This document shows positions 19,702 through 63,150 of a DNA stretch of 64,000 nucleotides, piece by piece. A model generated the notes under the pieces. That model was not told the DNA's origin. It worked only from the letters and a program-made list of their open reading frames with translations, and did not search any database. The position numbers were made by a program, and so were the translations under genes. Every line of letters begins with the position of its first letter. Position 1 is the stretch's first letter. The DNA comes from Spironucleus salmonicida (lineage: Eukaryota): positions 1,116,001-1,180,000 of the forward strand of contig NC_090596.1 in assembly GCF_000497125.1 (NCBI RefSeq), written 5' to 3'.

Positions 19702-21078
<1,377 letters not shown>

Positions 21079-26193: not shown

Positions 26194-29100
26194 ATGTCAG
26201 AACCCAGTTTGTCGGAAATTGCGAACGCCAAACTGGCCTCTGCAACACGCTTGACGGCGAACACGCGCACTTCCTCGCGGTTGCGCTAGCTCCCTCAACC
26301 CATGTCGTAACTGAAGGACCAACTGGCAGCGAAGGACTCCGTATCAGCCTACACGCGTTTTTTCGGTTAAAAGCCGCTAAACGACCATTTCTGCGCAGTA
26401 TTCGATGAAAATGGCATTCTAGGCTTCGAAACTGCCGCAGGTACTGTGGAGCTGTACCTGAATGCCGCAGCTGCAGCACTCACGCAGGTGGACATCTACG
26501 ATACGTCTGCCGCGCAGACCTTGTAACAGGTTATCGCCTATTTTGCAGCGCAGCTGCGTGCCATGTATAGCCAGAAGCTGGTTTTTGAGCAAAGCATCGA
26601 TGGTCTCGTACGCGGGAATGAGGCGCTTCAGCTCCAGCTACATGAAGCCAATACGGCCAACTTGCAACTTCAGAGCGCATTAAAAGAACTCAAAACCGGC
26701 AAAATTAACGCGGAAATAGAGTTCGACCGGATGAATATCGACTACGTAGCGATGCAGAAGGAGATGGAGCGAAACGGGACTTACCAGACGTCGCTTACAG
26801 CGTAAATACAGCAGTATCAAGCGGAGCTAGAAGCCACACGGTCCACTAACTCGCATGCGACGAAGCAGAACAACTACTACCACACGGAGCTGAACGACCT
26901 ACGGACGCGCTACGAGCAACTACTTATCACACACGAATACGTCTATAAGACGAACCAACAAAACGAGCAGGATCTGGGCGATGCGCGCCTGCAGATATCG
27001 CTCCTGAGCGAGTCCCAAATCGGCGACAGGCTGCGCATCGACGCGCTGCTGCGCGAGCACAACGAGGAGCTCAACTGCCTGCACAAGGAGAACACGAGCC
27101 TCATAATGCAGTCGCAGCTCGCCGAAACTGACGCGCTGCAGAAGGAGCGGCAGCAGCTCATTTTGTATAATCTGAAGCAGAGGGAGCTGGCGGACGTCAA
27201 TGCAAGCAAATAGCAGCAGCTGATCAAGCACATCGAGACGCAGCGCTCCCTGGCGAATCTGGGCCAGCGGCCGTCCGCAAACGTCAGAAATAGCTCCGTA
27301 TCGCGCTATTCGAGCGACTAAGAGGAATACGAAATCGAGGAAGAATGCGAAATCGACGCGGAAGGAAATGTGCTAATCCGACAGAAAAAACGGAAAAGGA
27401 ACGGAAAATGTACTCAATTTTCGAGGCCCAAAAAGCAGAATTTGATGCAATCTAGGACCTGCAGCCAGGCGAATTTGGGCGCGGAATTTGATGGTAGTGA
27501 GGGGGCGTTTTCGTCGGTCGCAACGCAGACGAATTTAACGCTAAAAGACGTGAATTTGCTGCTCAAAATTCGCTAAAACTTCGAAAAACTCGTCCCGGAC
27601 GCGAAGCAGCGCGCGAAGGTCCTGGGGGTGCAAATTAGGGGCGAAATGGGCCAGTCAGGGTCGCTCCAGAGCCTAATGAGCAAAAAGGAGCGGTAGAAGA
27701 AATAGGAAGTGGATTACGAGCAGAAAAGGGCGAACCTGAAATAAGCGATTGGGAACGCTCAAATTCAGCGCGGGAACTATCAGCAGCAGCTCACGGCTCT
27801 GCAAAAGTGGATGGAGGCGAATCCGGACAAGATTAGCGAGGAGGCGATTAGGCAAATGGAGGATTTGAAAATGAGTCTAATTAACACAAATCACGACATC
27901 GAAGTGCTGCAGGGCGAGTACAAATACGTCAAAAAGCAGGAAATCGAGGCGCGGCTGGAAAACGGCGATTCAGGCTCCGAGGAATCGGACAAAACGCACG
28001 AAGACGGGTATAGAATCAGCAAAAATTCAACATTTTAAGACCAATATGGATACAAAACGCAGGCGGTAAAATAGGGTACCGTTTAAAAATCATATATTAC
28101 AAGGGAAATTAATGCGTATCAAAAAGTTAATATAGATGGATAGTTTAATATGGAAATAGATGGTATGTAGGAGTCTAACTATATTGATGATAGGAATATT
28201 TAAATGAAGAATTTTATCTTAAATTAGAAGGAATTACCTCTAATCAAAGGAGTATACAAAAATTTGGCGAAGATCGAAGAAGATAGAGTCAGATATCTTA
28301 AAGAATTGCAAACTAACCTCCGGCAATCGTAAAAATAACAAAAATTATAAGCTTATTAATTGAAATAATAAGCATAAAATATATTAAAGAACCATCTTTT
28401 AAATTCAAAACGAGGAAAATCCAATATCACTGGTTTAGTCGTTAAAACAGAAGAGGATATTCGAAACGGTAAAAAATTGTATTAATAGAACTAAAATCAC
28501 GATTTTGAAAATCCATTTAAGCAAATTTTACGTAATCGTAAAAAATAATAAATCTAGTAAGAATTATAAACTAAAATTACAATGGATAATTTACGAAAAT
28601 TCAGAAATAAAGATATTGAAACACAAGATAATTTCGAGAAGAAATTATTTAGCTTAATTGCAAAAATTAAAAATCGAAAGAATACAGAAAGTTCGATAGA
28701 AAAATAGGACCCTGAGGAAACATCATCATCAGACTATTATGATTCAGAGCATTCTTCTGAAATTGATGCATCAGCTAATACAAATTAAGACGACAAAATA
28801 GATGAATCTACTCCTTATAATTTACTGCTTGGAGGCTCTTTACCTGCAGATGTTATACTTGCACCAGAAACCATATTATAATCTTCTACGACATCGCCAA
28901 TTCATTAAAATTTTGGAATTGCTTAGTCTCATTCTCCAAATAAACACCGCTTTGTTGCATCATCGCTTTTAGCGCTATAAAATGCATCGCCCTAATTCGA
29001 GAAAGCTATTTTTTCAACGTCAAAAACTTCAGTTTTCATGTATAAGAATTTATTTTCTTTCTTTGAAGATTTTGACTCTTTGAACACAAATTTAACATTA

Positions 29101-30183
29101 GACTCCGAATTTTCTGATATTATAATAGACGAAATATCAGCACTTTTTTATAAAATTATTAAGCCTTCTGCAAGCTCGAAACATCTTCTTTAAGAAAATA
29201 CAAAAATAGTTAAGATTGAATTTCATGAAGATTTTGATTCTATTTTCAATGATTTTAAGCTATAGAAGATAGTTACTAATGGGAAAACATACGCTCTTAT
29301 GCCTTATAACATATAATTAAAATCTTTGACATGGATTCTCAATCTTACAAAATAAATTATTGAATTTATTTTTGATGATTTCGCTTCTAAAGCTTTCAAA
29401 TTCATGACAAATCCTAACTAATAGTATAATACTTAGGGGTTAATATTAAATTTTGTATAAACAACTTATGGGCTTGAAATTTTATCCTAAAATATTGTTT
29501 TACATTTAATATCTAATTTAATTTCCCACAGGAAAAATAGTTCTAAAATTGAACTGTTATATCTTCTATTAACGAATAAAATTAGTATTCTGCAACTCCA
29601 GTTCCTTTCATTCCTTTAGAACTTAAATATAACATCTCTTACAAAACAGGATTTTTAGTCTCTTATACTTGTAGTATTTAGTGGTATTTCCATATAAAAT
29701 AATGATATATTATTGTTAAATTTCGATAAAAACTAGAAAGATAATGTTTTATAAAACGATTAGGTTTCTTTATTATTTTTACGATTCTTCTCACTTTAAA
29801 ATGTTCGTAAAAACATTAAGATGGTATCATTTTTTCCAGAATTTTAACGATTTACAGAAAGTTAAAAGAAGGGGTTTTAAGCCTTAATCGCTCCGTTTTT
29901 ACCATACCAAAAAATAAATGTTGTTGAAGAATTTTTATCGATTTTTGCATTCTCAGCAAAGCTGGATAAACTAGGTAATGCTGAACTTGTAGGACTATCA
30001 GAAGTTATATTAAAATAAATTTCAGAAGCACTTAGTGCTCAGAAAATGGAAAAAACTGCAAAACGGGCATTTATAAGATTAATTCGCAGCGTTCGCGCAA
30101 TTACTGAAGCACGTGAGGGTGTACGAGCCTGGGCATGCTGTAATTAGCTAATATGGCGTTGGTAGGAAGGAGTTATTAAGTGA
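26194..30183 (+). CDS. Large coiled-coil protein, 1329 aa
   Basis: Single frame containing track ORFs 26563, 27370 and 27811; N-terminal coiled coil, helical C-terminal domain; stop in AGTGA. Confidence 0.85.
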
Positions 30184-41935: not shown

Positions 41936-42853
41936 TCAGTCGATCGAAATGATCTCCAAATCATCGCTTTTCTCCCTCTTGTCTAAAACTGGCGTCTGCT
42001 GCGGATTTGGTGCGAAATCCGCAACATTTAAATCGGGGCTGGCCAGGGCGCTCATCGACAGCGCCAAGTTGGCTTGCAGTGCCTCAAAACTTCCATTTCG
42101 CTCGTCTGATTTCTATGAAATTTCGTCTTCGCCGCTCGCTTCCCAGCCGCCGAACGTCACGTTGTTTCGCTTGGAGCACATCTGCTAACTTTTCCGCTCC
42201 AAAATATCTTTCCACTCCACCTCCGCTCCACAAAGACACCTTCCTTTTACCGGAACTATCTAGTTTCCGATGCAGAGAATTTGCGCAAAGCAGGGCATGC
42301 AGAAGTCTTTTTTGCAGACGTGGCAGACAACGTTGTAGTCTGAAACCTATTATTTGCAAAATTGGCACTTTGCTACTTTGGGGGAGTGGAAAATCAAATT
42401 CGCAGCAATATTTTGGCCTTTTTCGATTAGAAAATTAGTCATAAATTGACCCTTCAGCTACGACCCGAACTGCTGAAACGCGCCGTAGCTGACGTACACG
42501 ACCCTCAGCGGCTGCCGGCTCCAGGTATCCAGCGCGAGCAGCTGCACGACGATCTAGACGCACTTTTCGGTGATTTTGGAGGACCTCAAATTCGTCTGAA
42601 TTTTCGTCAGCTTCGTCTTGTTCGGAAGCTACCACTACCGCTCGAACTGCAGTGCGGCCACCTTCGTGGAGAATCCGTACACGAAAAACTAGAGCTCCCA
42701 GGTTTTATTTCGCGTCGCCCGTGCGCCTCCAGCAATCTCGCGATTATGCTTCCGCAGACGTTATAGCGGGTCTGGTGTGAAGCCTATGTACGTGGACGTG
42801 TCTGACGTGATCAGGTAGCACGCGAAAAGACCTGATGGACCTGTTAATGTCAT
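41936..42853 (-). CDS. SLX1: Structure-specific endonuclease SLX1 (GIY-YIG plus RING-like), 305 aa
   Basis: FACYLITS..TYIGFTPDPLQRLRKHNREIAGGARAT..WELQFFVYGFSTKVAALQFERQWQ, then CQFC..CHVC..CMPC..IVPVKGRCLCG..W; missed by the track because of in-frame TAR codons. Confidence 0.93.
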
Positions 42854-44373
42854 AATTTTGAAAATACTAAATTATATAAAATATAGTATAATATTAAGTA
42901 AAATAAATTTAACATTTTGGGGTGATGTGATTTTTCTGTAGATTTTGCAGTAGTATGACTAAGGACTGCCAGTTGCAATAATAGAGTGGTGGTGATTTAC
43001 TGAGACTTAGAAATTTTATGGGAAAATAGGAGAGTTCGGTATTTATGGTAACGAGCACATTAAAATGGAAGTTAAAAAATATGTTAATGATTTTAATTTG
43101 ATTTAAGCCAAGGATTTTATCAGTTAAATACATGCTAATATTTAATGATAAATATATCTATACGGAAAACAATAATTTTAATTAATATAGGTTATCTTAA
43201 TGTTTCTAATATAAAAATATTTCCAGTATTGAGTGTGATTTATATGTAATGGTTTTGGTTACGATAAATTTAATAAAACAAAATATAATTACACTAATCA
43301 TAGGTTATAAACTAACCTTGATAGAATTAAATTTAATTATAATTGCATCTACAAATTGAGATTTTGAATAAAATAAATTTATTATATGATAATCCAATAA
43401 ATTAAAATATCGAGTTAGTAAATTTATGTAATAACAGATCTTAAATATCAATCAGAGCATAAAATTGCCAAACAATATAAATAAAGCATAGTTTTATTAA
43501 TAGTACTAATGGATTTGAACTTTAAGTTTTTTCCTCGAAATAATTGACAGACTTTTTAATTTAGCCAACATCAGCTAAATATCGTTAGTTATATATAAAA
43601 TCATAAATTAATAATAAGAATATTTAAAATAAATTAAGGATTTTTTTATTAGTTTATTATTTGTTACGTAAAGTATAAAATTTATTAATTACTTATTATA
43701 TCTATTTATCACTTTTTGCATATGGCATAATCACATAACTAAACATAAATAAATACTATAGATAAATCACAATAAACGATAGTTTTATATTACGGTATAC
43801 AATCAATCATTTTAATTTAATTTATTTTTACTAAGATATATTAATAAATAAAAATTTAATTGTAACCAAAGAAAATAAAATTAAACGATATACAACTATC
43901 ATGTATTATTGTGATAATTGGTTTTAAAATATTTTGGTTTCATAAAAAGTAATTTTATTGGGTACTTTATACCTTTAACTTGAAATGAATAATTACTGAT
44001 ATTTGGTAAATATTTATATTTATAGAAACTCTTTGTATTAAAAAATTATAAATAGAAAAATAAATATTATAAATAATAAAAACATATATTCATTAAAAAT
44101 AAGGTGTGCTAGGTATATAATATTGATTTAAGTATATCTCCTCAATAAATTTTTATCGGTAAGATATCACATTAATATGATATAGTTAACAATAAAAAAT
44201 TTATTTTATGAAATTTATTATATTTTATAATATATTATAATATACATAATATTTTATTTTTATATATTAAATTTATATATGATTAAAAAGAGTATGAAAT
44301 TGTCTTTGAATCCATTATTTTATACGGGTTATTACTTTTATATTGGCCGCTCCAAATTTCGCCACTCCTCAAA

Positions 44374-47300
44374 ATGTCTAACGCGACCTCCTGGTTTACA
44401 GCAGCTCGTACAGGCGATTGTCGCTATATACTTTAGCACAAATAAGCTTTTGCTAAGACTGTTGATTCTACATTCCCACATTCTTCAGCATTAATACTTG
44501 CAGCTCAGTCATCATAAACACCAGCTGCAAAACTTCTTCTACCATCTGAACGTGGTATGTAGAATAAACATGGTTGGTCTGCACTTCATTTTGCAGCATA
44601 TCAAAATAACTAAATTTTGGCTAAGCTTTTAGCTCCATTTGAAAATAATTTAAAAACTTCTTCACAATTCAAAAATATACCACCAGGTGCCTCCGCAGCC
44701 CAGGTTGCAGCTATATCTGGAAATAACGAAATTTTATCTATTTTTGGTTAAGAATTTGAGTACTTAAATCTACCATTTGACCTTTCACTCTCCGCAGAAA
44801 GGGATAATTTAGGTAGAACTAAACTTCATTATTATGCTGTAAAAGGTTAATTAAATAATTTTTAAGATGAAAACTCCGCATTCATCAAAGTTGTTGATAA
44901 TTAATAAAAAACCGCACTTATGATAGCTGCTGAATCTGGCAATATTTCAGTAGTTTAAGCATTAATTAACTATGAAAGTGGAATATAAGGTGGTATTTAG
45001 GGCAATACTGCGCTTATGATTGCAATTGAAAATAAAAAGAATGCACTAGTTTAAATATTAGCTGAAAAAGAAGCTAAGATTTAAAATTAAGTTGGTCTGA
45101 CCGCTATGATGTTAGCAGCTAAAGATGGTAATTTAGATGCTGTTAAATTACTAGTTGACCAAGAAAAACGAATTTAAACAAGCTAATAATTTAACTAGTT
45201 CCCGGCTGGAACTACTGCTTTAATGTTAGCTGAGTTTTATGGTAGAAATGAAGTAGTTGTATTTTTAAAGGATCATGAGTAAGATTTAGTTAACTCTAAA
45301 AATCAAACATATAAGCAAATTGAAAAATTATCCAGTTCGAATGTTAGATAGTATAGTCCAAGAAGGAATTTCAATTATGAAGTGGCTCCTTCGAATGTTT
45401 TACCAGCTCAATAAAGTAACTTAATCAACCAGTTATAAAATAGTAATGGTCCTAAGGACAATTAATTAGAGATTACCAGGGAAGTATTAAGGAGTATTTC
45501 TACTTAAAATGATAATTCTGAAGTTATTTTGACTATTTAGGAAAAATTGGGATAAACAAAAGAATAAATGGCAACTATGGAAGCAAGATTATAGTTTAAA
45601 GAAAAAGAAATTTCAGAACTAAAATAATTTGTTCATATGAAGCCATGCGAATCTTGTAAAGATAAATAAGATATAATACGTGAAAAAACTTCGGAAATTG
45701 AAGTTCTTAAAAAAGATCTTAAAGAGGTTGAACAAGAACTTAGACATTCTAAAGAAAGAATTATGGAATTATCTGTTCTCGCTGATAAATAACAACGTTT
45801 GGAGTTATAGTTACAATAAATTTATGATTCTCTTATTAATGGAGATTTAATGAATGCTAATTCAATCGCATATGACAATGATGCCGTTGAGAAGATTAGA
45901 TTATATAAGGATGAAATTTATAATCTTAAAGCAGAAAATTTAAACCTTACTGATAGAGTTAACAATATGAATTAAGAATTAATATAACTTAAAGATAAGA
46001 TTGAGCATTTGGAATAGGAAAATAAAGAACTTATGGAATAAAATTTAGCTCTGAAATCATAAATTCCGACAGATATGGCTGAGTAGCTGGAAGAGCTAAT
46101 TCGTGAAAATGAAGATCTTAAAGACCAGCTGGCCTCTTTCCAAGCTACTTAGATGGAAACTCTTTCCTCTGCTCCCGAGCTCCAGTCCGAGCTTACCACT
46201 CTCAAGGAGTAAGTCGAACAGCTCAAGCAGGCTGATCCTATGTTACTCACCCGACTTAATAACGACAGGTAACAGTTAGCCGCTCTCAAGAACGAACTCG
46301 CCCAACTTGACCCCCTCAACGAGGTCGTCGAAGAGAACATGGAGCCCGAAGCTGCCGCTATGTGCGCCGCTGACAACACCGCCGATGAGCTTACCAACTA
46401 ACTCGCTGCCATCAGTGTTGCCGACCCGACCGCCCCCACTTAAGCAGCTGAGATCGAACGCCAGATTGCTGATCTTACGAAGTCGGTAGAAGCACTGAAG
46501 GGTGCTCCAGTTGACCTCCCAGTCTCCCAGTATGCCGACCAAGCTGAGCTCGCCGCTCTCAGAGAAGAGCTCGAACAGCTTAGAGCTGCCCCCGTTACTA
46601 CCGAGCCTCTCGCCGCCGCTGAGTCAGCCGACCAGGACCTTGCCGAGAAGTTAGCTGCTTCCGAGCAAGAACTCACGGCCCTCAAGGAAGAGCTCGAACA
46701 GCTTAGAGCTGCCCCCGCCCCAATGGAAACTCTTTCCTCTGCTCCCGAGCTCCAGTCCGAGCTTACCACTCTCAAGGAGTAAGTCGAACAGCTCAAGCAG
46801 GCTGATCCTATGTTACTCACCAGACTTAATAACGACAGGTAACAGTTAGCCGCTCTCAAGAACGAACTCGCCCAACTTGACCCCCTCAACGAGGTCGTCG
46901 AAGAGAACATGGAGCCCGAAGCTGCCGCTATGTGCGCCGCTGACAACACCGCCGATGAGCTTACCAACTAACTCGCTGCCATCAGTGTTGCCGACCCGAC
47001 CGCCCCCACTTAAGCAGCTGAGATCGAACGCCAGATTGCTGATCTTACGAAGTCGGTAGAAGCACTGAAGGGTGCTCCAGTTGACCTCCCAGTCTCCCAG
47101 TATGCCGACCAAGCTGAGCTCGCCGCTCTCAGAGAAGAGCTCGAACAGCTTAGAGCTGCCCCCGTTACTACCGAGCCTCTCGCCGCCGCTGAGTCAGCCG
47201 ACCAGGACCTTGCCGAGAAGTTAGCTGCTTCCGAGCAAGAACTCACGGCCCTCAAGGAAGAGCTCGAACAGCTTAGAGCTGCCCCCGCCCCAATGGAAAC

Positions 47301-50300
47301 TCTTTCCTCTGCTCCCGAGCTCCAGTCCGAGCTTACCACTCTCAAGGAGTAAGTCGAACAGCTCAAGCAGGCTGATCCTATGTTACTCACCCGACTTAAT
47401 AACGACAGGTAACAGTTAGCCGCTCTCAAGAACGAACTCGCCCAACTTGACCCCCTCAACGAGGTCGTCGAAGAGAACATGGAGCCCGAAGCTGCCGCTA
47501 TGTGCGCCGCTGACAACACCGCCGATGAGCTTACCAACTAACTCGCTGCCATCAGTGTTGCCGACCCGACCGCCCCCACTTAAGCAGCTGAGATCGAACG
47601 CCAGATTGCTGATCTTACGAAGTCGGTAGAAGCACTGAAGGGTGCTCCAGTTGACCTCCCAGTCTCCCAGTATGCCGACCAAGCTGAGCTCGCCGCTCTC
47701 AGAGAAGAGCTCGAACAGCTTAGAGCTGCCCCCGTTACTACCGAGCCTCTCGCCGCCGCTGAGTCAGCCGACCAGGACCTTGCCGAGAAGTTAGCTGCTT
47801 CCGAGCAAGAACTCACGGCCCTCAAGGAAGAGCTCGAACAGCTTAGAGCTGCCCCCGTTACTACCGAGCCTCTCGCCGCCGCTGAGTCAGCCGACCAGGA
47901 CCTTGCCGAGAAGTTAGCTGCTTCCGAGCAAGAACTCACGGCCCTCAAGGAAGAGCTCGAACAGCTTAGAGCTGCCCCCGCCCCAATGGAAACTCTTTCC
48001 TCTGCTCCCGAGCTCCAGTCCGAGCTTACCACTCTCAAGGAGTAAGTCGAACAGCTCAAGCAGGCTGATCCTATGTTACTCACCAGACTTAATAACGACA
48101 GGTAACAGTTAGCCGCTCTCAAGAACGAACTCGCCCAACTTGACCCCCTCAACGAGGTCGTCGAAGAGAACATGGAGCCCGAAGCTGCCGCTATGTGCGC
48201 CGCTGACAACACCGCCGATGAGCTTACCAACTAACTCGCTGCCATCAGTGTTGCCGACCCGACCGCCCCCACTTAAGCAGCTGAGATCGAACGCCAGATT
48301 GCTGATCTTACGAAGTCGGTAGAAGCACTGAAGGGTGCTCCAGTTGACCTCCCAGTCTCCCAGTATGCCGACCAAGCTGAGCTCGCCGCTCTCAGAGAAG
48401 AGCTCGAACAGCTTAGAGCTGCCCCCGTTACTACCGAGCCTCTCGCCGCCGCTGAGTCAGCCGACCAGGACCTTGCCGAGAAGTTAGCTGCTTCCGAGCA
48501 AGAACTCACGGCCCTCAAGGAAGAGCTCGAACAGCTTAGAGCTGCCCCCGCCCCAATGGAAACTCTTTCCTCTGCTCCCGAGCTCCAGTCCGAGCTTACC
48601 ACTCTCAAGGAGTAAGTCGAACAGCTCAAGCAGGCTGATCCTATGTTACTCACCCGACTTAATAACGACAGGTAACAGTTAGCCGCTCTCAAGAACGAAC
48701 TCGCCCAACTTGACCCCCTCAACGAGGTCGTCGAAGAGAACATGGAGCCCGAAGCTGCCGCTATGTGCGCCGCTGACAACACCGCCGATGAGCTTACCAA
48801 CTAACTCGCTGCCATCAGTGTTGCCGACCCGACCGCCCCCACTTAAGCAGCTGAGATCGAACGCCAGATTGCTGATCTTACGAAGTCGGTAGAAGCACTG
48901 AAGGGTGCTCCAGTTGACCTCCCAGTCTCCCAGTATGCCGACCAAGCTGAGCTCGCCGCTCTCAGAGAAGAGCTCGAACAGCTTAGAGCTGCCCCCGTTA
49001 CTACCGAGCCTCTCGCCGCCGCTGAGTCAGCCGACCAGGACCTTGCCGAGAAGTTAGCTGCTTCCGAGCAAGAACTCACGGCCCTCAAGGAAGAGCTCGA
49101 ACAGCTTAGAGCTGCCCCCGTTACTACCGAGCCTCTCGCCGCCGCTGAGTCAGCCGACCAGGACCTTGCCGAGAAGTTAGCTGCTTCCGAGCAAGAACTC
49201 ACGGCCCTCAAGGAAGAGCTCGAACAGCTTAGAGCTGCCCCCGTTACTACCGAGCCTCTCGCCGCCGCTGAGTCAGCCGACCAGGACCTTGCCGAGAAGT
49301 TAGCTGCTTCCGAGCAAGAACTCACGGCCCTCAAGGAAGAGCTCGAACAGCTTAGAGCTGCCCCCGTTACTACCGAGCCTCTCGCCGCCGCTGAGTCAGC
49401 CGACCAGGACCTTGCCGAGAAGTTAGCTGCTTCCGAGCAAGAACTCACGGCCCTCAAGGAAGAGCTCGAACAGCTTAGAGCTGCCCCCGCCCCAATGGAA
49501 ACTCTTTCCTCTGCTCCCGAGCTCCAGTCCGAGCTTACCACTCTCAAGGAGTAAGTCGAACAGCTCAAGCAGGCTGATCCTATGTTACTCACCAGACTTA
49601 ATAACGACAGGTAACAGTTAGCCGCTCTCAAGAACGAACTCGCCCAACTTGACCCCCTCAACGAGGTCGTCGAAGAGAACATGGAGCCCGAAGCTGCCGC
49701 TATGTGCGCCGCTGACAACACCGCCGATGAGCTTACCAACTAACTCGCTGCCATCAGTGTTGCCGACCCGACCGCCCCCACTTAAGCAGCTGAGATCGAA
49801 CGCCAGATTGCTGATCTTACGAAGTCGGTAGAAGCACTGAAGGGTGCTCCAGTTGACCTCCCAGTCTCCCAGTATGCCGACCAAGCTGAGCTCGCCGCTC
49901 TCAGAGAAGAGCTCGAACAGCTTAGAGCTGCCCCCGTTACTACCGAGCCTCTCGCCGCCGCTGAGTCAGCCGACCAGGACCTTGCCGAGAAGTTAGCTGC
50001 TTCCGAGCAAGAACTCACGGCCCTCAAGGAAGAGCTCGAACAGCTTAGAGCTGCCCCCGTTACTACCGAGCCTCTCGCCGCCGCTGAGTCAGCCGACCAG
50101 GACCTTGCCGAGAAGTTAGCTGCTTCCGAGCAAGAACTCACGGCCCTCAAGGAAGAGCTCGAACAGCTTAGAGCTGCCCCCGCCCCAATGGAAACTCTTT
50201 CCTCTGCTCCCGAGCTCCAGTCCGAGCTTACCACTCTCAAGGAGTAAGTCGAACAGCTCAAGCAGGCTGATCCTATGTTACTCACCAGACTTAATAACGA

Positions 50301-53300
50301 CAGGTAACAGTTAGCCGCTCTCAAGAACGAACTCGCCCAACTTGACCCCCTCAACGAGGTCGTCGAAGAGAACATGGAGCCCGAAGCTGCCGCTATGTGC
50401 GCCGCTGACAACACCGCCGATGAGCTTACCAACTAACTCGCTGCCATCAGTGTTGCCGACCCGACCGCCCCCACTTAAGCAGCTGAGATCGAACGCCAGA
50501 TTGCTGATCTTACGAAGTCGGTAGAAGCACTGAAGGGTGCTCCAGTTGACCTCCCAGTCTCCCAGTATGCCGACCAAGCTGAGCTCGCCGCTCTCAGAGA
50601 AGAGCTCGAACAGCTTAGAGCTGCCCCCGTTACTACCGAGCCTCTCGCCGCCGCTGAGTCAGCCGACCAGGACCTTGCCGAGAAGTTAGCTGCTTCCGAG
50701 CAAGAACTCACGGCCCTCAAGGAAGAGCTCGAACAGCTTAGAGCTGCCCCCGTTACTACCGAGCCTCTCGCCGCCGCTGAGTCAGCCGACCAGGACCTTG
50801 CCGAGAAGTTAGCTGCTTCCGAGCAAGAACTCACGGCCCTCAAGGAAGAGCTCGAACAGCTTAGAGCTGCCCCCGCCCCAATGGAAACTCTTTCCTCTGC
50901 TCCCGAGCTCCAGTCCGAGCTTACCACTCTCAAGGAGTAAGTCGAACAGCTCAAGCAGGCTGATCCTATGTTACTCACCCGACTTAATAACGACAGGTAA
51001 CAGTTAGCCGCTCTCAAGAACGAACTCGCCCAACTTGACCCCCTCAACGAGGTCGTCGAAGAGAACATGGAGCCCGAAGCTGCCGCTATGTGCGCCGCTG
51101 ACAACACCGCCGATGAGCTTACCAACTAACTCGCTGCCATCAGTGTTGCCGACCCGACCGCCCCCACTTAAGCAGCTGAGATCGAACGCCAGATTGCTGA
51201 TCTTACGAAGTCGGTAGAAGCACTGAAGGGTGCTCCAGTTGACCTCCCAGTCTCCCAGTATGCCGACCAAGCTGAGCTCGCCGCTCTCAGAGAAGAGCTC
51301 GAACAGCTTAGAGCTGCCCCCGTTACTACCGAGCCTCTCGCCGCCGCTGAGTCAGCCGACCAGGACCTTGCCGAGAAGTTAGCTGCTTCCGAGCAAGAAC
51401 TCACGGCCCTCAAGGAAGAGCTCGAACAGCTTAGAGCTGCCCCCGCCCCAATGGAAACTCTTTCCTCTGCTCCCGAGCTCCAGTCCGAGCTTACCACTCT
51501 CAAGGAGTAAGTCGAACAGCTCAAGCAGGCTGATCCTATGTTACTCACCCGACTTAATAACGACAGGTAACAGTTAGCCGCTCTCAAGAACGAACTCGCC
51601 CAACTTGACCCCCTCAACGAGGTCGTCGAAGAGAACATGGAGCCCGAAGCTGCCGCTATGTGCGCCGCTGACAACACCGCCGATGAGCTTACCAACTAAC
51701 TCGCTGCCATCAGTGTTGCCGACCCGACCGCCCCCACTTAAGCAGCTGAGATCGAACGCCAGATTGCTGATCTTACGAAGTCGGTAGAAGCACTGAAGGG
51801 TGCTCCAGTTGACCTCCCAGTCTCCCAGTATGCCGACCAAGCTGAGCTCGCCGCTCTCAGAGAAGAGCTCGAACAGCTTAGAGCTGCCCCCGTTACTACC
51901 GAGCCTCTCGCCGCCGCTGAGTCAGCCGACCAGGACCTTGCCGAGAAGTTAGCTGCTTCCGAGCAAGAACTCACGGCCCTCAAGGAAGAGCTCGAACAGC
52001 TTAGAGCTGCCCCCGCCCCAATGGAAACTCTTTCCTCTGCTCCCGAGCTCCAGTCCGAGCTTACCACTCTCAAGGAGTAAGTCGAACAGCTCAAGCAGGC
52101 TGATCCTATGTTACTCACCCGACTTAATAACGACAGGTAACAGTTAGCCGCTCTCAAGAACGAACTCGCCCAACTTGACCCCCTCAACGAGGTCGTCGAA
52201 GAGAACATGGAGCCCGAAGCTGCCGCTATGTGCGCCGCTGACAACACCGCCGATGAGCTTACCAACTAACTCGCTGCCATCAGTGTTGCCGACCCGACCG
52301 CCCCCACTTAAGCAGCTGAGATCGAACGCCAGATTGCTGATCTTACGAAGTCGGTAGAAGCACTGAAGGGTGCTCCAGTTGACCTCCCAGTCTCCCAGTA
52401 TGCCGACCAAGCTGAGCTCGCCGCTCTCAGAGAAGAGCTCGAACAGCTTAGAGCTGCCCCCGTTACTACCGAGCCTCTCGCCGCCGCTGAGTCAGCCGAC
52501 CAGGACCTTGCCGAGAAGTTAGCTGCTTCCGAGCAAGAACTCACGGCCCTCAAGGAAGAGCTCGAACAGCTTAGAGCTGCCCCCGCCCCAATGGAAACTC
52601 TTTCCTCTGCTCCCGAGCTCCAGTCCGAGCTTACCACTCTCAAGGAGTAAGTCGAACAGCTCAAGCAGGCTGATCCTATGTTACTCACCCGACTTAATAA
52701 CGACAGGTAACAGTTAGCCGCTCTCAAGAACGAACTCGCCCAACTTGACCCCCTCAACGAGGTCGTCGAAGAGAACATGGAGCCCGAAGCTGCCGCTATG
52801 TGCGCCGCTGACAACACCGCCGATGAGCTTACCAACTAACTCGCTGCCATCAGTGTTGCCGACCCGACCGCCCCCACTTAAGCAGCTGAGATCGAACGCC
52901 AGATTGCTGATCTTACGAAGTCGGTAGAAGCACTGAAGGGTGCTCCAGTTGACCTCCCAGTCTCCCAGTATGCCGACCAAGCTGAGCTCGCCGCTCTCAG
53001 AGAAGAGCTCGAACAGCTTAGAGCTGCCCCCGTTACTACCGAGCCTCTCGCCGCCGCTGAGTCAGCCGACCAGGACCTTGCCGAGAAGTTAGCTGCTTCC
53101 GAGCAAGAACTCACGGCCCTCAAGGAAGAGCTCGAACAGCTTAGAGCTGCCCCCGCCCCAATGGAAACTCTTTCCTCTGCTCCCGAGCTCCAGTCCGAGC
53201 TTACCACTCTCAAGGAGTAAGTCGAACAGCTCAAGCAGGCTGATCCTATGTTACTCACCCGACTTAATAACGACAGGTAACAGTTAGCCGCTCTCAAGAA

Positions 53301-56300
53301 CGAACTCGCCCAACTTGACCCCCTCAACGAGGTCGTCGAAGAGAACATGGAGCCCGAAGCTGCCGCTATGTGCGCCGCTGACAACACCGCCGATGAGCTT
53401 ACCAACTAACTCGCTGCCATCAGTGTTGCCGACCCGACCGCCCCCACTTAAGCAGCTGAGATCGAACGCCAGATTGCTGATCTTACGAAGTCGGTAGAAG
53501 CACTGAAGGGTGCTCCAGTTGACCTCCCAGTCTCCCAGTATGCCGACCAAGCTGAGCTCGCCGCTCTCAGAGAAGAGCTCGAACAGCTTAGAGCTGCCCC
53601 CGTTACTACCGAGCCTCTCGCCGCCGCTGAGTCAGCCGACCAGGACCTTGCCGAGAAGTTAGCTGCTTCCGAGCAAGAACTCACGGCCCTCAAGGAAGAG
53701 CTCGAACAGCTTAGAGCTGCCCCCGTTACTACCGAGCCTCTCGCCGCCGCTGAGTCAGCCGACCAGGACCTTGCCGAGAAGTTAGCTGCTTCCGAGCAAG
53801 AACTCACGGCCCTCAAGGAAGAGCTCGAACAGCTTAGAGCTGCCCCCGCCCCAATGGAAACTCTTTCCTCTGCTCCCGAGCTCCAGTCCGAGCTTACCAC
53901 TCTCAAGGAGTAAGTCGAACAGCTCAAGCAGGCTGATCCTATGTTACTCACCCGACTTAATAACGACAGGTAACAGTTAGCCGCTCTCAAGAACGAACTC
54001 GCCCAACTTGACCCCCTCAACGAGGTCGTCGAAGAGAACATGGAGCCCGAAGCTGCCGCTATGTGCGCCGCTGACAACACCGCCGATGAGCTTACCAACT
54101 AACTCGCTGCCATCAGTGTTGCCGACCCGACCGCCCCCACTTAAGCAGCTGAGATCGAACGCCAGATTGCTGATCTTACGAAGTCGGTAGAAGCACTGAA
54201 GGGTGCTCCAGTTGACCTCCCAGTCTCCCAGTATGCCGACCAAGCTGAGCTCGCCGCTCTCAGAGAAGAGCTCGAACAGCTTAGAGCTGCCCCCGTTACT
54301 ACCGAGCCTCTCGCCGCCGCTGAGTCAGCCGACCAGGACCTTGCCGAGAAGTTAGCTGCTTCCGAGCAAGAACTCACGGCCCTCAAGGAAGAGCTCGAAC
54401 AGCTTAGAGCTGCCCCCGTTACTACCGAGCCTCTCGCCGCCGCTGAGTCAGCCGACCAGGACCTTGCCGAGAAGTTAGCTGCTTCCGAGCAAGAACTCAC
54501 GGCCCTCAAGGAAGAGCTCGAACAGCTTAGAGCTGCCCCCGCCCCAATGGAAACTCTTTCCTCTGCTCCCGAGCTCCAGTCCGAGCTTACCACTCTCAAG
54601 GAGTAAGTCGAACAGCTCAAGCAGGCTGATCCTATGTTACTCACCCGACTTAATAACGACAGGTAACAGTTAGCCGCTCTCAAGAACGAACTCGCCCAAC
54701 TTGACCCCCTCAACGAGGTCGTCGAAGAGAACATGGAGCCCGAAGCTGCCGCTATGTGCGCCGCTGACAACACCGCCGATGAGCTTACCAACTAACTCGC
54801 TGCCATCAGTGTTGCCGACCCGACCGCCCCCACTTAAGCAGCTGAGATCGAACGCCAGATTGCTGATCTTACGAAGTCGGTAGAAGCACTGAAGGGTGCT
54901 CCAGTTGACCTCCCAGTCTCCCAGTATGCCGACCAAGCTGAGCTCGCCGCTCTCAGAGAAGAGCTCGAACAGCTTAGAGCTGCCCCCGTTACTACCGAGC
55001 CTCTCGCCGCCGCTGAGTCAGCCGACCAGGACCTTGCCGAGAAGTTAGCTGCTTCCGAGCAAGAACTCACGGCCCTCAAGGAAGAGCTCGAACAGCTTAG
55101 AGCTGCCCCCGCCCCAATGGAAACTCTTTCCTCTGCTCCCGAGCTCCAGTCCGAGCTTACCACTCTCAAGGAGTAAGTCGAACAGCTCAAGCAGGCTGAT
55201 CCTATGTTACTCACCCGACTTAATAACGACAGGTAACAGTTAGCCGCTCTCAAGAACGAACTCGCCCAACTTGACCCCCTCAACGAGGTCGTCGAAGAGA
55301 ACATGGAGCCCGAAGCTGCCGCTATGTGCGCCGCTGACAACACCGCCGATGAGCTTACCAACTAACTCGCTGCCATCAGTGTTGCCGACCCGACCGCCCC
55401 CACTTAAGCAGCTGAGATCGAACGCCAGATTGCTGATCTTACGAAGTCGGTAGAAGCACTGAAGGGTGCTCCAGTTGACCTCCCAGTCTCCCAGTATGCC
55501 GACCAAGCTGAGCTCGCCGCTCTCAGAGAAGAGCTCGAACAGCTTAGAGCTGCCCCCGTTACTACCGAGCCTCTCGCCGCCGCTGAGTCAGCCGACCAGG
55601 ACCTTGCCGAGAAGTTAGCTGCTTCCGAGCAAGAACTCACGGCCCTCAAGGAAGAGCTCGAACAGCTTAGAGCTGCCCCCGCCCCAATGGAAACTCTTTC
55701 CTCTGCTCCCGAGCTCCAGTCCGAGCTTACCACTCTCAAGGAGTAAGTCGAACAGCTCAAGCAGGCTGATCCTATGTTACTCACCCGACTTAATAACGAC
55801 AGGTAACAGTTAGCCGCTCTCAAGAACGAACTCGCCCAACTTGACCCCCTCAACGAGGTCGTCGAAGAGAACATGGAGCCCGAAGCTGCCGCTATGTGCG
55901 CCGCTGACAACACCGCCGATGAGCTTACCAACTAACTCGCTGCCATCAGTGTTGCCGACCCGACCGCCCCCACTTAAGCAGCTGAGATCGAACGCCAGAT
56001 TGCTGATCTTACGAAGTCGGTAGAAGCACTGAAGGGTGCTCCAGTTGACCTCCCAGTCTCCCAGTATGCCGACCAAGCTGAGCTCGCCGCTCTCAGAGAA
56101 GAGCTCGAACAGCTTAGAGCTGCCCCCGTTACTACCGAGCCTCTCGCCGCCGCTGAGTCAGCCGACCAGGACCTTGCCGAGAAGTTAGCTGCTTCCGAGC
56201 AAGAACTCACGGCCCTCAAGGAAGAGCTCGAACAGCTTAGAGCTGCCCCCGCCCCAATGGAAACTCTTTCCTCTGCTCCCGAGCTCCAGTCCGAGCTTAC

Positions 56301-59300
56301 CACTCTCAAGGAGTAAGTCGAACAGCTCAAGCAGGCTGATCCTATGTTACTCACCCGACTTAATAACGACAGGTAACAGTTAGCCGCTCTCAAGAACGAA
56401 CTCGCCCAACTTGACCCCCTCAACGAGGTCGTCGAAGAGAACATGGAGCCCGAAGCTGCCGCTATGTGCGCCGCTGACAACACCGCCGATGAGCTTACCA
56501 ACTAACTCGCTGCCATCAGTGTTGCCGACCCGACCGCCCCCACTTAAGCAGCTGAGATCGAACGCCAGATTGCTGATCTTACGAAGTCGGTAGAAGCACT
56601 GAAGGGTGCTCCAGTTGACCTCCCAGTCTCCCAGTATGCCGACCAAGCTGAGCTCGCCGCTCTCAGAGAAGAGCTCGAACAGCTTAGAGCTGCCCCCGTT
56701 ACTACCGAGCCTCTCGCCGCCGCTGAGTCAGCCGACCAGGACCTTGCCGAGAAGTTAGCTGCTTCCGAGCAAGAACTCACGGCCCTCAAGGAAGAGCTCG
56801 AACAGCTTAGAGCTGCCCCCGCCCCAATGGAAACTCTTTCCTCTGCTCCCGAGCTCCAGTCCGAGCTTACCACTCTCAAGGAGTAAGTCGAACAGCTCAA
56901 GCAGGCTGATCCTATGTTACTCACCCGACTTAATAACGACAGGTAACAGTTAGCCGCTCTCAAGAACGAACTCGCCCAACTTGACCCCCTCAACGAGGTC
57001 GTCGAAGAGAACATGGAGCCCGAAGCTGCCGCTATGTGCGCCGCTGACAACACCGCCGATGAGCTTACCAACTAACTCGCTGCCATCAGTGTTGCCGACT
57101 CGACCGCCCCCACTTAAGCAGCTGAGATCGAACGCCAGATTGCTGATCTTACGAAGTCGGTAGAAGCACTGAAGGGTGCTCCAGTTGACCTCCCAGTCTC
57201 CCAGTATGCCGACCAAGCTGAGCTCGCCGCTCTCAGAGAAGAGCTCGAACAGCTTAGAGCTGCCCCCGTTACTACCGAGCCTCTCGCCGCCGCTGAGTCA
57301 GCCGACCAGGACCTTGCCGAGAAGTTAGCTGCTTCCGAGCAAGAACTCACGGCCCTCAAGGAAGAGCTCGAACAGCTTAGAGCTGCCCCCGCCCCAATGG
57401 AAACTCTTTCCTCTGCTCCCGAGCTCCAGTCCGAGCTTACCACTCTCAAGGAGTAAGTCGAACAGCTCAAGCAGGCTGATCCTATGTTACTCACCCGACT
57501 TAATAACGACAGGTAACAGTTAGCCGCTCTCAAGAACGAACTCGCCCAACTTGACCCCCTCAACGAGGTCGTCGAAGAGAACATGGAGCCCGAAGCTGCC
57601 GCTATGTGCGCCGCTGACAACACCGCCGATGAGCTTACCAACTAACTCGCTGCCATCAGTGTTGCCGACCCGACCGCCCCCACTTAAGCAGCTGAGATCG
57701 AACGCCAGATTGCTGATCTTACGAAGTCGGTAGAAGCACTGAAGGGTGCTCCAGTTGACCTCCCAGTCTCCCAGTATGCCGACCAAGCTGAGCTCGCCGC
57801 TCTCAGAGAAGAGCTCGAACAGCTTAGAGCTGCCCCCGTTACTACCGAGCCTCTCGCCGCCGCTGAGTCAGCCGACCAGGACCTTGCCGAGAAGTTAGCT
57901 GCTTCCGAGCAAGAACTCACGGCCCTCAAGGAAGAGCTCGAACAGCTTAGAGCTGCCCCCGTTACTACCGAGCCTCTCGCCGCCGCTGAGTCAGCCGACC
58001 AGGACCTTGCCGAGAAGTTAGCTGCTTCCGAGCAAGAACTCACGGCCCTCAAGGAAGAGCTCGAACAGCTTAGAGCTGCCCCCGTTACTACCGAGCCTCT
58101 CGCCGCCGCTGAGTCAGCCGACCAGGACCTTGCCGAGAAGTTAGCTGCTTCCGAGCAAGAACTCACGGCCCTCAAGGAAGAGCTCGAACAGCTTAGAGCT
58201 GCCCCCGTTACTACCGAGCCTCTCGCCGCCGCTGAGTCAGCCGACCAGGACCTTGCCGAGAAGTTAGCTGCTTCCGAGCAAGAACTCACGGCCCTCAAGG
58301 AAGAGCTCGAACAGCTTAGAGCTGCCCCCGTTACTACCGAGCCTCTCGCCGCCGCTGAGTCAGCCGACCAGGACCTTGCCGAGAAGTTAGCTGCTTCCGA
58401 GCAAGAACTCACGGCCCTCAAGGAAGAGCTCGAACAGCTTAGAGCTGCCCCCGCCCCAATGGAAACTCTTTCCTCTGCTCCCGAGCTCCAGTCCGAGCTT
58501 ACCACTCTCAAGGAGTAAGTCGAACAGCTCAAGCAGGCTGATCCTATGTTACTCACCCGACTTAATAACGACAGGTAACAGTTAGCCGCTCTCAAGAACG
58601 AACTCGCCCAACTTGACCCCCTCAACGAGGTCGTCGAAGAGAACATGGAGCCCGAAGCTGCCGCTATGTGCGCCGCTGACAACACCGCCGATGAGCTTAC
58701 CAACTAACTCGCTGCCATCAGTGTTGCCGACCCGACCGCCCCCACTTAAGCAGCTGAGATCGAACGCCAGATTGCTGATCTTACGAAGTCGGTAGAAGCA
58801 CTGAAGGGTGCTCCAGTTGACCTCCCAGTCTCCCAGTATGCCGACCAAGCTGAGCTCGCCGCTCTCAGAGAAGAGCTCGAACAGCTTAGAGCTGCCCCCG
58901 TTACTACCGAGCCTCTCGCCGCCGCTGAGTCAGCCGACCAGGACCTTGCCGAGAAGTTAGCTGCTTCCGAGCAAGAACTCACGGCCCTCAAGGAAGAGCT
59001 CGAACAGCTTAGAGCTGCCCCCGCCCCAATGGAAACTCTTTCCTCTGCTCCCGAGCTCCATTCCGAGCTTACCACTCTCAAGGAGTAAGTCGAACAGCCC
59101 TTGTTAACCACTGAATAACCAATTGAGCTTACTAATTTAGATAGACTTAATAAGTCTAAAGATCAATTGGCCACTCTTAAGGATAAGGTTAACAGCGTCG
59201 CTAATGATGAAAAAATTGAAAACTAATTGGATACAGTTTAAGAATATATAGACGATATTGACGCACTCGTTTTAGCTATAGATGCAGTTTAGCCAGAAGC

Positions 59301-59904
59301 TGATGAATAGCTTCAATTACTCGACGAAAAACTTGATAACTTGAGTTTAGCTGTAAATGACTTAGTTATGGATGATAATGATGTAGAACTTGCCAATCTC
59401 GCAGATTCATTAGATAACTTAAAGAATGCACCAATTACAGAAAATCCAGAAACCCTCAAATAATTAGCAGATGCCCGTGCTAAAATTGAGGATCTTTCGA
59501 AACGTCTTTAAGACGTTCAAGAGGTCAAATAGGACATCTTTGCAGATGTTAATTTAGAAGAATTGCCAGCCCCCATTGCGGAGAAAATAGTGGAGGCCAA
59601 TAAGCAGTTGAACGAAGCAAAGAACTAAATAGATGACGCTAAGGTAGAGGTTGCGGAGACCAAAGCCAAGAGAAAGAGCGACAAAAAGAAGGTTAAGAAG
59701 TTAATGGATTAATATAATGTTGATAAGGCGAAACTGAGAGAATAAATGAAGATGGCCAAGAAAGCAGAGGCTTAATTGGCATCTATTAAGAGAATGATGG
59801 ATGAATTAGCTGGAATAGAGTAAAGACAAGAGTCAACTGATGCTAGTTAAATTGAAAGTTCTGTTGCTTTAGAGCCTATTGCATTAAGCGATTCAGCAGA
59901 GTGA
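44374..59904 (+). CDS. Giant ankyrin-repeat / coiled-coil (head-stalk, Protein 21.1/GASP-180-like) protein, about 5176 aa
   Basis: N-terminal WFTAARTGD and ankyrin motifs (GWSALHFAA, TALMIAAESGN, GNTALMIA, GLTAMMLAAKDGNLDAVKLL); the frame continues without TGA through 570- and 123-bp repeats (both multiples of 3) to GAGTGA. Confidence 0.88.
46153..59097 (+). repeat. Nested coding tandem array: 20 full units of 570 bp (plus extra 123-bp subunits) and one partial unit
   Basis: Unit spacings of 570, 693, 939 and 1062 bp; units are near-identical. Confidence 0.97.
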
Positions 59905-60210
59905 TATATGAAATGAAATTGCTTTATTCTTATTTTACTACTTTTATCTACAATAAAACAAATACTTTTATTTTTAAATAAAATATTGAATTTTATATTA
60001 TGATATAATGTACTTAATTTCTAAGAAATACGAAGATAATTGTGACATAATAAAATTTTGATTTTTATGTATTGTTATGTCCTAATTTAATATTCAATAT
60101 TATTGTATAAATAATATAATAATATATACTATAAATAATTATAAAAAAAATTATTAGTATAAAATATATATTAATCCATCTATTTTTAAATCAAGACCAT
60201 TCCTTTAAAT

Positions 60211-63150
60211 ATGGTTAAATCTGAGCCAGTACCTTAAGAAATTATTGATTGGCGTGAAGCACTATCAAATCCTAAATCAATTGAAAAAACGATGCAGGAG
60301 ATTGTGAAAGCTATGTCTAACGGCTTTGATGTTTCCCCACTTTTTTCAGATGTCCTGAAACACATGCAGACTACTAATTTGAAGCTCAAAAAGCTCATTT
60401 ACATCTTCTTAACTTCAAATGCGTATTAAAACTCAAATTACACACTGCTTGTAGTCAACGGTGTCGAAAATGACTCCCACAACGAATCACCCTTTATCCG
60501 CGCTCTTGCAATCCGCGCAATGGGCGCAATCGTGACAGCTGATGTTGCAGAACATTTCTGCCAGTCATTTACCCGTTTCGCATCCGATTTGGACCCGTTC
60601 GTCCGCAAAACAACATGCCCCGCTATCGCGAAGCTCTACAAGGTCAACCCCCAGCTCTGTACGGACACCAACTTGGTCCAGGTCCTCAGATCTCTAATTT
60701 TCGACTCAAATACTGCCGTCGTCTCAGCCGCAACGGCGTCTCTAGTGACCGTCTACTCGTCGACTCACCAGACGATTTTTTCGGCCGAAGAGACCAACCA
60801 GCTTCTTCTCGCGCTTTCTACCGCTAACGAGTGGTCAGCCCAGACAATTTTGTCTGCAATTTCGCAATTTTCGCAAATCAGCGAACCACAAATCGCAATT
60901 CAGCAAATTACACCGTTTCTACAGCATGCAAATCCTGCCGTCTCGTTGAGCGCTATTAACCTCATGAACAAATTTGGTCAGAACAGCGAGAGCTCTATCG
61001 TCAGTTTGATCAGTCAGGCAAGCTCCAGCGAGGTGTAGTTCGTTGCAATGCGCGCGTTACGCCTTGCGATGGTCCACAAGGAAAGTTTCAGCAGAAATTT
61101 GAAGCTCTTTTACGTTAATTTCAAGGACGAAATTTACGTTAAGTTGGAGAAAATTGAGCTTTTGGCGAGTTTTGCGACTTTGGAGGTCGTTCAGGACATC
61201 ATAAACGAGCTTACTGAGTATTGTCAGGATGTTAACGATTAGATCGTCAGAAAGAGCCTTTACGCGCTTGCAAAAATTGCGTGTAACGTGCCTCAGTCTG
61301 CCGATATGGTCGTGCAGACGTTTATTTTACTACTGACCGGTAAAAATGCTCAAAAAGATATTTAATTTAGATTGTAGCCTTATGCTGCTTAGGAATTGCT
61401 GGTTCAGATCCAAATGATCTTTAGAGCGTTCCCTGATAGATATGAAGGCGTTATAGGTGAGTTGACCGAAGCAATCGTCTAATATGATGATTACAGAGCT
61501 AAAAGCGCTTTAATTTGGATTTTAGGCGAATACAGTGACAGAATCGAAGGCGTTGAAGAAGTTATTTTGGATTTGTTCGACTAAGACGTAAAAACTGTTA
61601 AAAATGAGCACTGCGATGTTTAGTTCAGCTTATTGAATGCATCTGCCAAAGTTTATCTTAGCAACCAAAAGGATGCTACTTAAACCTTGTTTTTAGACCT
61701 TGTTGATGAAATGAAAAAATCTGACGAGCCTGGTGTTAGACAGAGAGCTAATTATCTTTCTAAGTTATTTAAGATGGATCCTACTCTTTAGCTTGCTAAG
61801 AGTGTTATTTATGTTTAAAAATCTATTCCAGTATTCACTGACGGTATTAGTCCAGTTTTGCAAAGCAAGCTTGTTTAGAGATTAGGGTCAGTTGAGGCGA
61901 CTATGCGCTAGGTTATTGTTTTAAATAACGTTGTAGGCGTTCATGATGCGGATGATGTTGTTGATTAATTCTAAAATGCTGAAAATGAGCAGCCAACACC
62001 AACGAGCATGCAATAGTAGATACCTTCACAAATTTCCTAACCACCTATGTAAGTACCTACTCCACCCATGTAATAATAGGATCCAGCACCTGCAATTGTC
62101 TCAAAACCAGTTGATCTTCTCGATGACGTAATGGGCGGTCCTCCTCCTAAACAGGCTCAGTAGAAAGTAGATCTAGTTGATGATATCTTTGGATTTGATA
62201 GCCCAACAGTTTCTGCACCTGCTACTGCTTCCGCAGTTGCACCTGTTTTTAATGCTCCTAATGCATAGTAGTAAGTTTAGTAAGCTGCTCCAGTATAATA
62301 GTAGTCATCTGAGCACCCAAATACGTAAACTCCCTAAGGAAATTACATGTTTGCTAACTGCCCAGTTCGTCCCAAAGATTAATCCTATCCTTTAAAATTA
62401 GTAGTTGGTTTCACTAGAATTAACGATTCCCCAGTTATGTTAGTTTAAATTAAAAATACTGCTTAGACTCCTATTATGAAACCTACTTTCGTATTTTAGT
62501 CTAATGCTTTTGGTATATAAGCATAAGAGTTAAATATCCCAGTTATCCCTGCATTAAACATGTTCAACTAAGGTAAACCAGTATAAATTAACTTTGTAGC
62601 AGAATCTCCATCTAATACTCTTGCTAATAAATTTAACATGCCTGACCTCAAGTTATAGTCTCAGCTTAACGTTCTCACCTTCTAAGTCAATACTTCTTAG
62701 GGAACATCTTACTTCTATTAGGTTAAGCTTCCAATTTCTATAGTATTCAACTCTTCTGGCTTTTGGCATAAATCTCGTCTTCTTACTGATTTCAATGGTG
62801 CTCAAAACGTTCTTTCTTAATCAAACTAATGGCCTGAATTTATCGAAATTCAAAACGTTTTCTTTGGCTAACTTCAAGCCACAGATTTTTCAACTTCTAT
62901 CAGCTCAGCTCTTATGAAACTTTAGGAAGCTAACTTCTTGCTTATTTAAACTACGAACGAGTCTGCTGATTTAGTTATCAACTCGACTATTCTTGGGTAA
63001 CAGGTCATTGCGGTCACTAATGTTTCTTGGTAACTGAGCCATAACCTCTAAAGTGTCGATTTCAGAGTTGTTTCTAAGGTTTAGGCTAGCCAGTCTCTTG
63101 TTGGTTAATTTGTTGTCAATGCTGCTGCTTAAGTTGTCTCTGGTAAGTGA
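60211..63150 (+). CDS. Adaptor protein complex beta subunit (AP-1/2 beta-adaptin), 979 aa
   Basis: GFDVSPLFSDVLKHMQTTNLKLKKLIYIFL, SPFIRALAIRAM, DPFVRKT, DEIYVKLEKIELL, AKSALIWILGEYSDRI; Q/P-rich hinge and C-terminal ear. Confidence 0.95.

Follow-up and report, generated by a model that had tools for sequence, protein, structure and literature searches.

The window analysed here comprises 64,000 nucleotides of the Spironucleus salmonicida genome and carries on its forward strand an open reading frame of 5,176 codons, which runs from an ATG at position 44374 to a TGA at position 59904 and contains no internal TGA when translated with NCBI table 6 (Table 1). A preceding sequence-only reading had described one uninterrupted frame of about 5176 residues at this place, and both its coordinates and its length proved exact. 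The predicted product has no transmembrane segment, the highest 19-residue hydropathy (1.34) lying within an ankyrin repeat.

Within the frame 138 codons are TAA or TAG, and with the standard code translation would stop at the first of them, codon 21. According to passages of PMC3916229, S. salmonicida reads TAA and TAG as Gln and uses TGA as the sole stop. Opposite the TAA/TAG positions of the head, Gln occupies 32 of the 87 alignment cells across four relatives, compared with a background of 6.6% elsewhere. The neighbouring ABC-F gene, translated with TAA and TAG as Gln, matches a public database entry letter for letter. On the basis of these two results and the published statement the diplomonad code was assigned to the organism. 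Introns as the reason for the TAA codons are ruled out, since the intron motif of the species is unmatched anywhere in the window. The frame had been thought hidden by the standard code, and the 138 codons agree with this, but the databases already translate the species with the correct code. The gene is therefore known already but truncated on file, rather than concealed by the genetic code.

The likeness of the stretch around the start codon to the promoter pattern described for S. salmonicida in parts of PMC3916229 was judged by eye and is unscored. The AGTGA context of the stop codon was found in 9 of the 12 ORFs checked within the window.

Upstream lies a divergent gene for an SLX1-like GIY-YIG nuclease (window 41939-43060, -), which is about 2-fold down in an RNA-seq table of PMC6397501, and downstream a beta-adaptin gene (60067-63150, +). 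Elsewhere in the window an ORF of 1,398 codons (25987-30183, +) ends in AGTGA and has no Pfam family; its N-terminal half is coiled-coil-like, with a GC-rich stretch. Directly 3' of the ABC-F gene (21120-23354, -) about 348 copies of CTTA form an internal array (19674-21078) that shades into (CTAA)n at its right end. The array lies far from the contig end, and its unit differs by one base from the telomere repeat (TAGG)n reported for the species in PMC9509377. Its 40-mers gave 194 overlapping genome matches, all forward, and the 100 matches listed are all in the window array.

Table 1. Features of the 5,176-codon frame (window positions) and its paralogs (genome positions).
Feature	Position	Strand	Basis or remark
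Whole ORF	44374..59904	+	5,176 aa, 560 kDa, pI 4.15
C-rich stretch, then AAAA, then start ATG; promoter-like	44347..44376	+	sequence; published pattern of the species
Ankyrin-repeat head, residues 1-305, ~8 helix pairs	44374..45288	+	Pfam Ank_2; AlphaFold2
Low-confidence linker, residues 320-385	45331..45528	+	pLDDT < 50
Unique coiled coil, residues 386-593	45529..46152	+	models as in-register parallel homodimer
CxxC neck motif (Cys425, Cys428), preceding heptad run	45646..45657	+	shared with relatives
Array, residues 594-4885 (4,292 aa)	46153..59028	+	20 A + 32 B modules
Antisense open frame, 4,509 codons	45633..59162	-	judged a shadow of the array
Diverged extra A+B unit opening the tail, residues 4886-5067	59029..59574	+	alignment to array
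Basic patch, residues 5097-5140 (17 K/R, 5 D/E in 44)	59662..59793	+	composition
AGTGA: stop codon overlapping putative polyadenylation signal of the species	59900..59904	+	sequence; PMC3916229
Paralog KAH0577459, 524 aa	C1:1202467-1204041		array-free; CxxC neck
Head-stalk paralog KAH0570434, 807 aa	C7:87325-89748		AT-rich, array-free
Head-stalk paralog, unnamed, 716 aa	C4:1619508-1621658		AT-rich, array-free

Head, neck and tail

The ankyrin head matches Pfam Ank_2 with an E value of 1e-36 (125.8 bits, cut-off 27.3) and was modelled by AlphaFold2 from 7 sequences with a pLDDT by block of 62-92. It is 50%, 41% and 38% identical to the heads of two paralogs and one Hexamita inflata protein. Ankyrin families alone exceed the Pfam cut-off on head and neck, and none does on the tail. 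Both the head of about 300 aa and the unique coiled coil behind it had been recognised in the sequence-only reading; the latter is helical and was modelled as a dimer.

For this model, two copies of residues 380-593 were folded together with zinc and without an alignment. The in-register, parallel dimer scored 0.38, compared with 0.00 for the best of 3 controls; contact agreement in the runs was at least 83% and pLDDT at least 72. Of 30 solved homodimers 21 attained the same mark, as against 0 of 23 single chains; among eukaryotic proteins it was attained by 17 of 29 homodimers and 0 of 30 single chains, but by just 1 of the 7 without an older solved relative. The model spans the neck only, and its run included a zinc ligand, with none comparable in the calibration. 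It supports, but does not show, that the neck forms a parallel coiled-coil dimer, and the score may mirror a likeness to solved coiled coils. Both neck cysteines sit in the modelled interface, which makes the CxxC motif a candidate inter-chain zinc clasp, whereas a ligand site for zinc was not reported by the model.

Two of the three paralogs read, two G. muris proteins and the H. inflata cluster have a CxxC followed by heptads; the C4 paralog lacks the motif. The motif occurs in 9 of 27 proteins with the head motif versus 37 of 214 others, but no significance is claimed for this enrichment, since four of the nine come from a single H. inflata cluster and another is the database entry of the query itself.

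The tail, residues 4886-5176, was previously called K-rich. This applies to one 44-residue patch with 17 K/R, a candidate second binding end, whereas the tail overall is acidic (net charge -27).

The two-module array and its reading frame

The array is composed of A modules of 441 nt (147 aa) and B modules of 123 nt, the last B of each run having 129 nt (41-43 aa). Successive A modules are followed by 1,1,2,1,4,2,2,1,1,1,1,2,2,1,1,1,1,1,5,1 B modules, i.e. by runs of 1-5. Every module length is divisible by 3, and all 52 modules and 20 of 20 junctions into A are in frame. Each of the 20 A modules contains four in-frame TAA codons, as had been noticed before for the repeat unit, and B contains none. 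Fifteen of the 20 A copies are identical, four (units 2, 4, 6 and 7) carry one silent change and one carries a Pro-to-Ser exchange, giving two variable sites; B copies differ only in the 6-nt end. One Cys is present in each A module. A pattern search of the genome returned 20 matches for A and 32 for B, all at the array locus; the module count is taken from one assembly. In a metagenome scan, 0 of 287 pattern matches were confirmed.

An acidic, helical and Pro-hinged region of about 4300 aa had been proposed. The 4,292 residues carry a net charge of -584 and include 132 Pro-free segments of at least 18 residues, which cover 3,443 residues; the helicity of these Pro-hinged segments is a matter of modelling. 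Single-sequence AlphaFold2 of two repeat units predicted helices throughout at low confidence (pLDDT 61.5, pTM 0.21), and a fold search with this model gave 0 of 124 rows at E <= 0.001. Structure prediction, suggested earlier as a check, thus yielded helices but no fold match for two units. Axonemal-doublet rows in the same search were discarded (E > 1, TM about 0.1). Against Pfam, the two units reached 41.7 for DUF6779 (cut-off 28.1) and 26.6 for an MTR4-like stalk (cut-off 24.2), both as summed scores with 0 passing stretches, which we read as helical composition. If wholly helical the array would be 644 nm long, a maximum that the hinges would cut. The strongly acidic 3-heptad helices may also stay unpaired or fold back on themselves.

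An open frame across a tandem array is, taken alone, weak evidence of coding. In 20,000 simulated 570-nt units a given frame was free of TGA in 3.3%, any of the six in 33% and two or more in 4.9%. Such chance openness in short units, and the 4,509 open codons on the opposite strand, could be taken to mean that the array is non-coding satellite DNA or that the antisense frame is the encoded one. The heptad pattern, however, occupies 38% of windows along the + frame, a value reached by 0 of 300 shuffles; the other five frames reach 0-6%, none clearly over shuffles, and the antisense open frame 0%. The + frame also has the best amino-acid fit to the genes of the window, the antisense frame being poorer and Ser/Ala-rich. 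Together with the codon-position pattern and a diverged protein-level copy in the tail, these results leave the satellite or antisense reading a negligible probability. The antisense ORF was rejected as a gene because it lacks the heptad signal and fits the amino-acid usage less well. The + frame is singled out since it is continuous with the head, carries heptads and ends in the AGTGA stop context.

The diverged copy is the A+B unit with which the tail opens. Its first 23 codons are identical to A in 69 of 70 nt. Past these, 46 of 137 aligned residues are identical, with a score of 115; four other stalks score 42-60, and none of 1,000 shuffles exceeds 92. At the 46 identical residues, codons of tail unit and array differ at 34, and third-position G/C counts are 29 versus 14. 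Judging from this diverged unit, the repeat is native to this gene, and recombination maintains its uniformity. Presumably the array has been homogenised long enough for its GC content to drift, which is 0.58 versus 0.28-0.38 in the flanks; this agrees with the GC-richer duplicated regions of S. salmonicida described in PMC9509377.

Database record, relatives and expression

Among 1.84 billion representatives the best match is an S. salmonicida protein of 898 aa (EST47092.1, V6LQY7, SS50377_12798), filed as 'Ankyrin repeat-containing protein'. It is identical over residues 1-783; from 784 it follows the +1 frame of the second A module until it ends at 898, so that 19 units and the tail are missing. 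Its neighbour in a published table is the GIY-YIG gene, which is likewise its neighbour in the window. The exact 5,176-aa protein is absent from the sequence collection searched. No full-length version was found at 1,039-2,965 aa among 7,999 candidates listed, and at 2,846-9,058 aa 3 of 1,146 candidates listed scored, all of them generic ankyrin proteins; very long proteins may be missing from both sets. Unit and tail scored with 0 of 8,000 candidates listed at 264-842 aa. The three identifiers occur in no main text searched, a scope that excludes subscription journals and most supplements. Words of the gene were found in 9 public sequencing runs from 3 studies, none recorded as RNA; the fraction of the words is 0.30-0.43 in four runs presumed to be RNA by guess and 0.11 in one run with a different label, and none of these values serves as evidence here.

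It is conceivable that the real gene is much shorter, either because the assembly has the copy number wrong or because the frameshifted 898-aa form is the true product. Near-identical arrays are difficult to assemble, the record departs from the frame at 784, and neither a record of 1,039-9,058 aa nor one with the tail appeared among the candidates listed. However, the frameshift falls at a repeat junction and the gene starts a new accession run, which suggests a break of the draft within the array. The 20 in-frame junctions into A likewise argue against a shorter gene, and the irregular module order is hard to obtain from collapse or simple over-expansion. Moreover, the silent variant is confined to units 2, 4, 6 and 7 (chance of this span 3.2%, calculated post hoc). 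A much shorter gene is thus highly improbable.

A genome search for paralogs gave 20 ankyrin matches among 25 candidates, of which the three best were read through (Table 1). The H. inflata CAL6050604 cluster (665 aa) has the same head, CxxC neck and coiled-coil stalk, and is array-free. One-to-one orthology of these relatives with the giant gene is a presumption, and no sister Spironucleus species is among the matches. In the 524-aa paralog similarity ends at residue 488, and an inverted duplication of 5.9 kb begins at codon 489 (98.7% identical; arms 1203932-1209805 and 1185390-1191263). This paralog has probably been cut short by the duplication boundary, and it is therefore a weak witness for length. 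An arm of the duplication seemingly carries membrane-transporter-like ORFs. Matches past the hexamitid relatives are generic ankyrin proteins, with Giardia NEK, Protein 21.1 and ARP proteins at the top.

Since relatives of 665-807 aa do without the array, it may be a largely neutral, unstable expansion whose extra length is tolerated while head, neck and tail do the work. The almost identical copies and irregular B-runs would fit this, as would the richness of the genome in recent duplications (PMC9509377, in part). On the other hand, the divergence between array and tail copy and the GC shift imply a long-lived array, 52 of 52 modules keep the frame, and an induced transcript of 15.5 kb and a 560-kDa protein would be costly. 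We consider neutral expansion unlikely; if true, it would add a further example of a coding repeat under concerted evolution.

In the RNA-seq data of PMC6397501 SS50377_12798 rises by log2 +3.80 after 1 h of oxygen and by +3.76 without antioxidants (padj 5e-10), an induction of about 14-fold in four replicates according to the supplement. The counts were made on the truncated 898-aa model and hence reflect the 5' part of the gene; the main-text passages of that paper do not mention it. A GC-rich paralog falls in the same data (log2 -1.35 and -0.76), so that a simple GC bias is unlikely to be behind the induction, and the 807-aa paralog is unchanged (not significant). A constitutive structural part would hardly be expected to respond so strongly to oxygen. 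The induction could instead point to a stress-induced soluble scaffold, whose CxxC neck would sense oxidation or zinc and whose acidic array would offer a multivalent binding surface. The rise under two oxidative conditions, with paralogs falling or flat, the CxxC at the modelled interface and the one Cys per A module are in line with this proposal. Yet the induction is unspecific, as 623 genes are up in both conditions (PMC6397501), the model reported no zinc ligand site, and uninduced paralogs possess CxxC too. A soluble scaffold is accordingly very unlikely in our view.

A table of PMC6397501 groups SS50377_12798 by OrthoMCL with Giardia GL50803_115478/115479. According to passages of PMC8552679, the F-actin-enriched protein GL50803_115478 is located at the marginal plate and at flagellar exit sites as well as in axoneme-associated puncta. 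The grouping may reflect generic ankyrin or coiled-coil similarity; in our protein searches no Giardia protein is close across the coiled coil or the repeat.

Interpretation and known systems

We prefer the reading, to which we give about an even chance, that this is an expressed diplomonad head-stalk gene coding for a flexible dimeric linker of the cytoskeleton or cortex, whose length is loosely constrained and whose presumed location, partners and role are part of this proposal. The stalk would owe an approximately tenfold gain in length to the tandem amplification of a segment of its own. From the neck the dimer would run on along some 130 short, acidic heptad helices with proline hinges between them, forming a flexible rod that measures at most about 0.6 micrometre. 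With its paired ankyrin heads the protein may attach to one structure of the cytoskeleton or cortex, and with the basic patch close to its C-terminus to a second one, and would so serve as a long, compliant linker or spacer. Through unequal exchange and gene conversion the copies would stay identical while changing in number; for this reason array length is likely tolerated over a range, not fixed.

A stricter version would make the protein a molecular ruler: a single molecule would reach from one structure to another, at a distance dictated by the number of repeats. Its architecture resembles that of T. brucei p197, a spacer of the tripartite attachment complex with about 26 near-identical helical repeats of 175 aa, distinct ends and a mass of 660 kDa, which was first annotated in collapsed form and has relatives without repeats (PMC9546609, in part). 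Both are giant protist proteins with distinct ends and a long central region of near-identical repeats, helical by modelling in our case; the likeness is one of architecture alone and does not imply homology. The maximal array length of 644 nm would also suit a ruler. However, the irregular A(B)1-5 order has no fixed period, and the closest relatives found (524-807 aa) are about 7 times shorter, whereas passages of PMC9546609 describe p197 orthologs as all of high mass. The sequence-only reading had proposed a giant segmented filament or molecular ruler with length set by repeat number; array-free relatives and B-runs of 1-5 speak against the ruler, and we regard a strict ruler or spacer as quite unlikely. 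Similarly doubtful is the most far-reaching proposal, an oxygen-induced, zinc-clasped dimeric tether of about 0.6 micrometre that would set a cytoskeletal distance in steps of 6 nm and 28 nm tunable by recombination, p197-like but evolved independently from a head-stalk protein. If true, a diplomonad family so far unexplained would be tied to cell architecture in host colonisation. S. salmonicida can be tagged, and the spacer idea is thus directly testable. Unlike the Spironucleus protein, p197 is built from a single type of repeat, its anchors are known, and the effect of its length has been measured.

The Giardia head-stalk proteins (GASP-180, GHSP-115), for which Elmendorf 2005 is said to be the defining paper, and Protein 21.1/ARP-1 likewise consist of ankyrin repeats followed by a long coiled coil. 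Head-stalk proteins are defined by ankyrin repeats and a subsequent lengthy coiled coil in a table of PMC3499766; further descriptions of head-stalk or ankyrin proteins are given in parts of PMC13315228, PMC3243723, PMC7641422 and PMC7000408, and many Giardia ankyrin proteins are cytoskeletal according to PMC3243723. In the protein described here an N-terminal ankyrin series precedes the modelled coiled coil 386-593 and the heptads of the array, and ankyrin families alone are recognised, as in the ARP-1/Protein 21.1 class, which PMC7000408 defines by ankyrin repeats with neither a kinase nor a zinc-finger domain. New here are the diverged tail unit, the shared CxxC neck, the modelled neck dimer and the oxygen induction taken from published RNA-seq data; the 898-aa record is corrected to a probable 560-kDa protein. 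In contrast to the Giardia head-stalk proteins, this one has 5,176 residues, a near-identical two-module array and a stalk broken by prolines every 20-35 residues, and it is without a C-terminal ankyrin block. The hexamitid subfamily (KAH0577459, KAH0570434, the C4 paralog and CAL6050604) shares the head and coiled-coil stalk without the array; compared with these, the giant gene suggests that the stalks of head-stalk proteins can grow about tenfold by an internal homogenised array.
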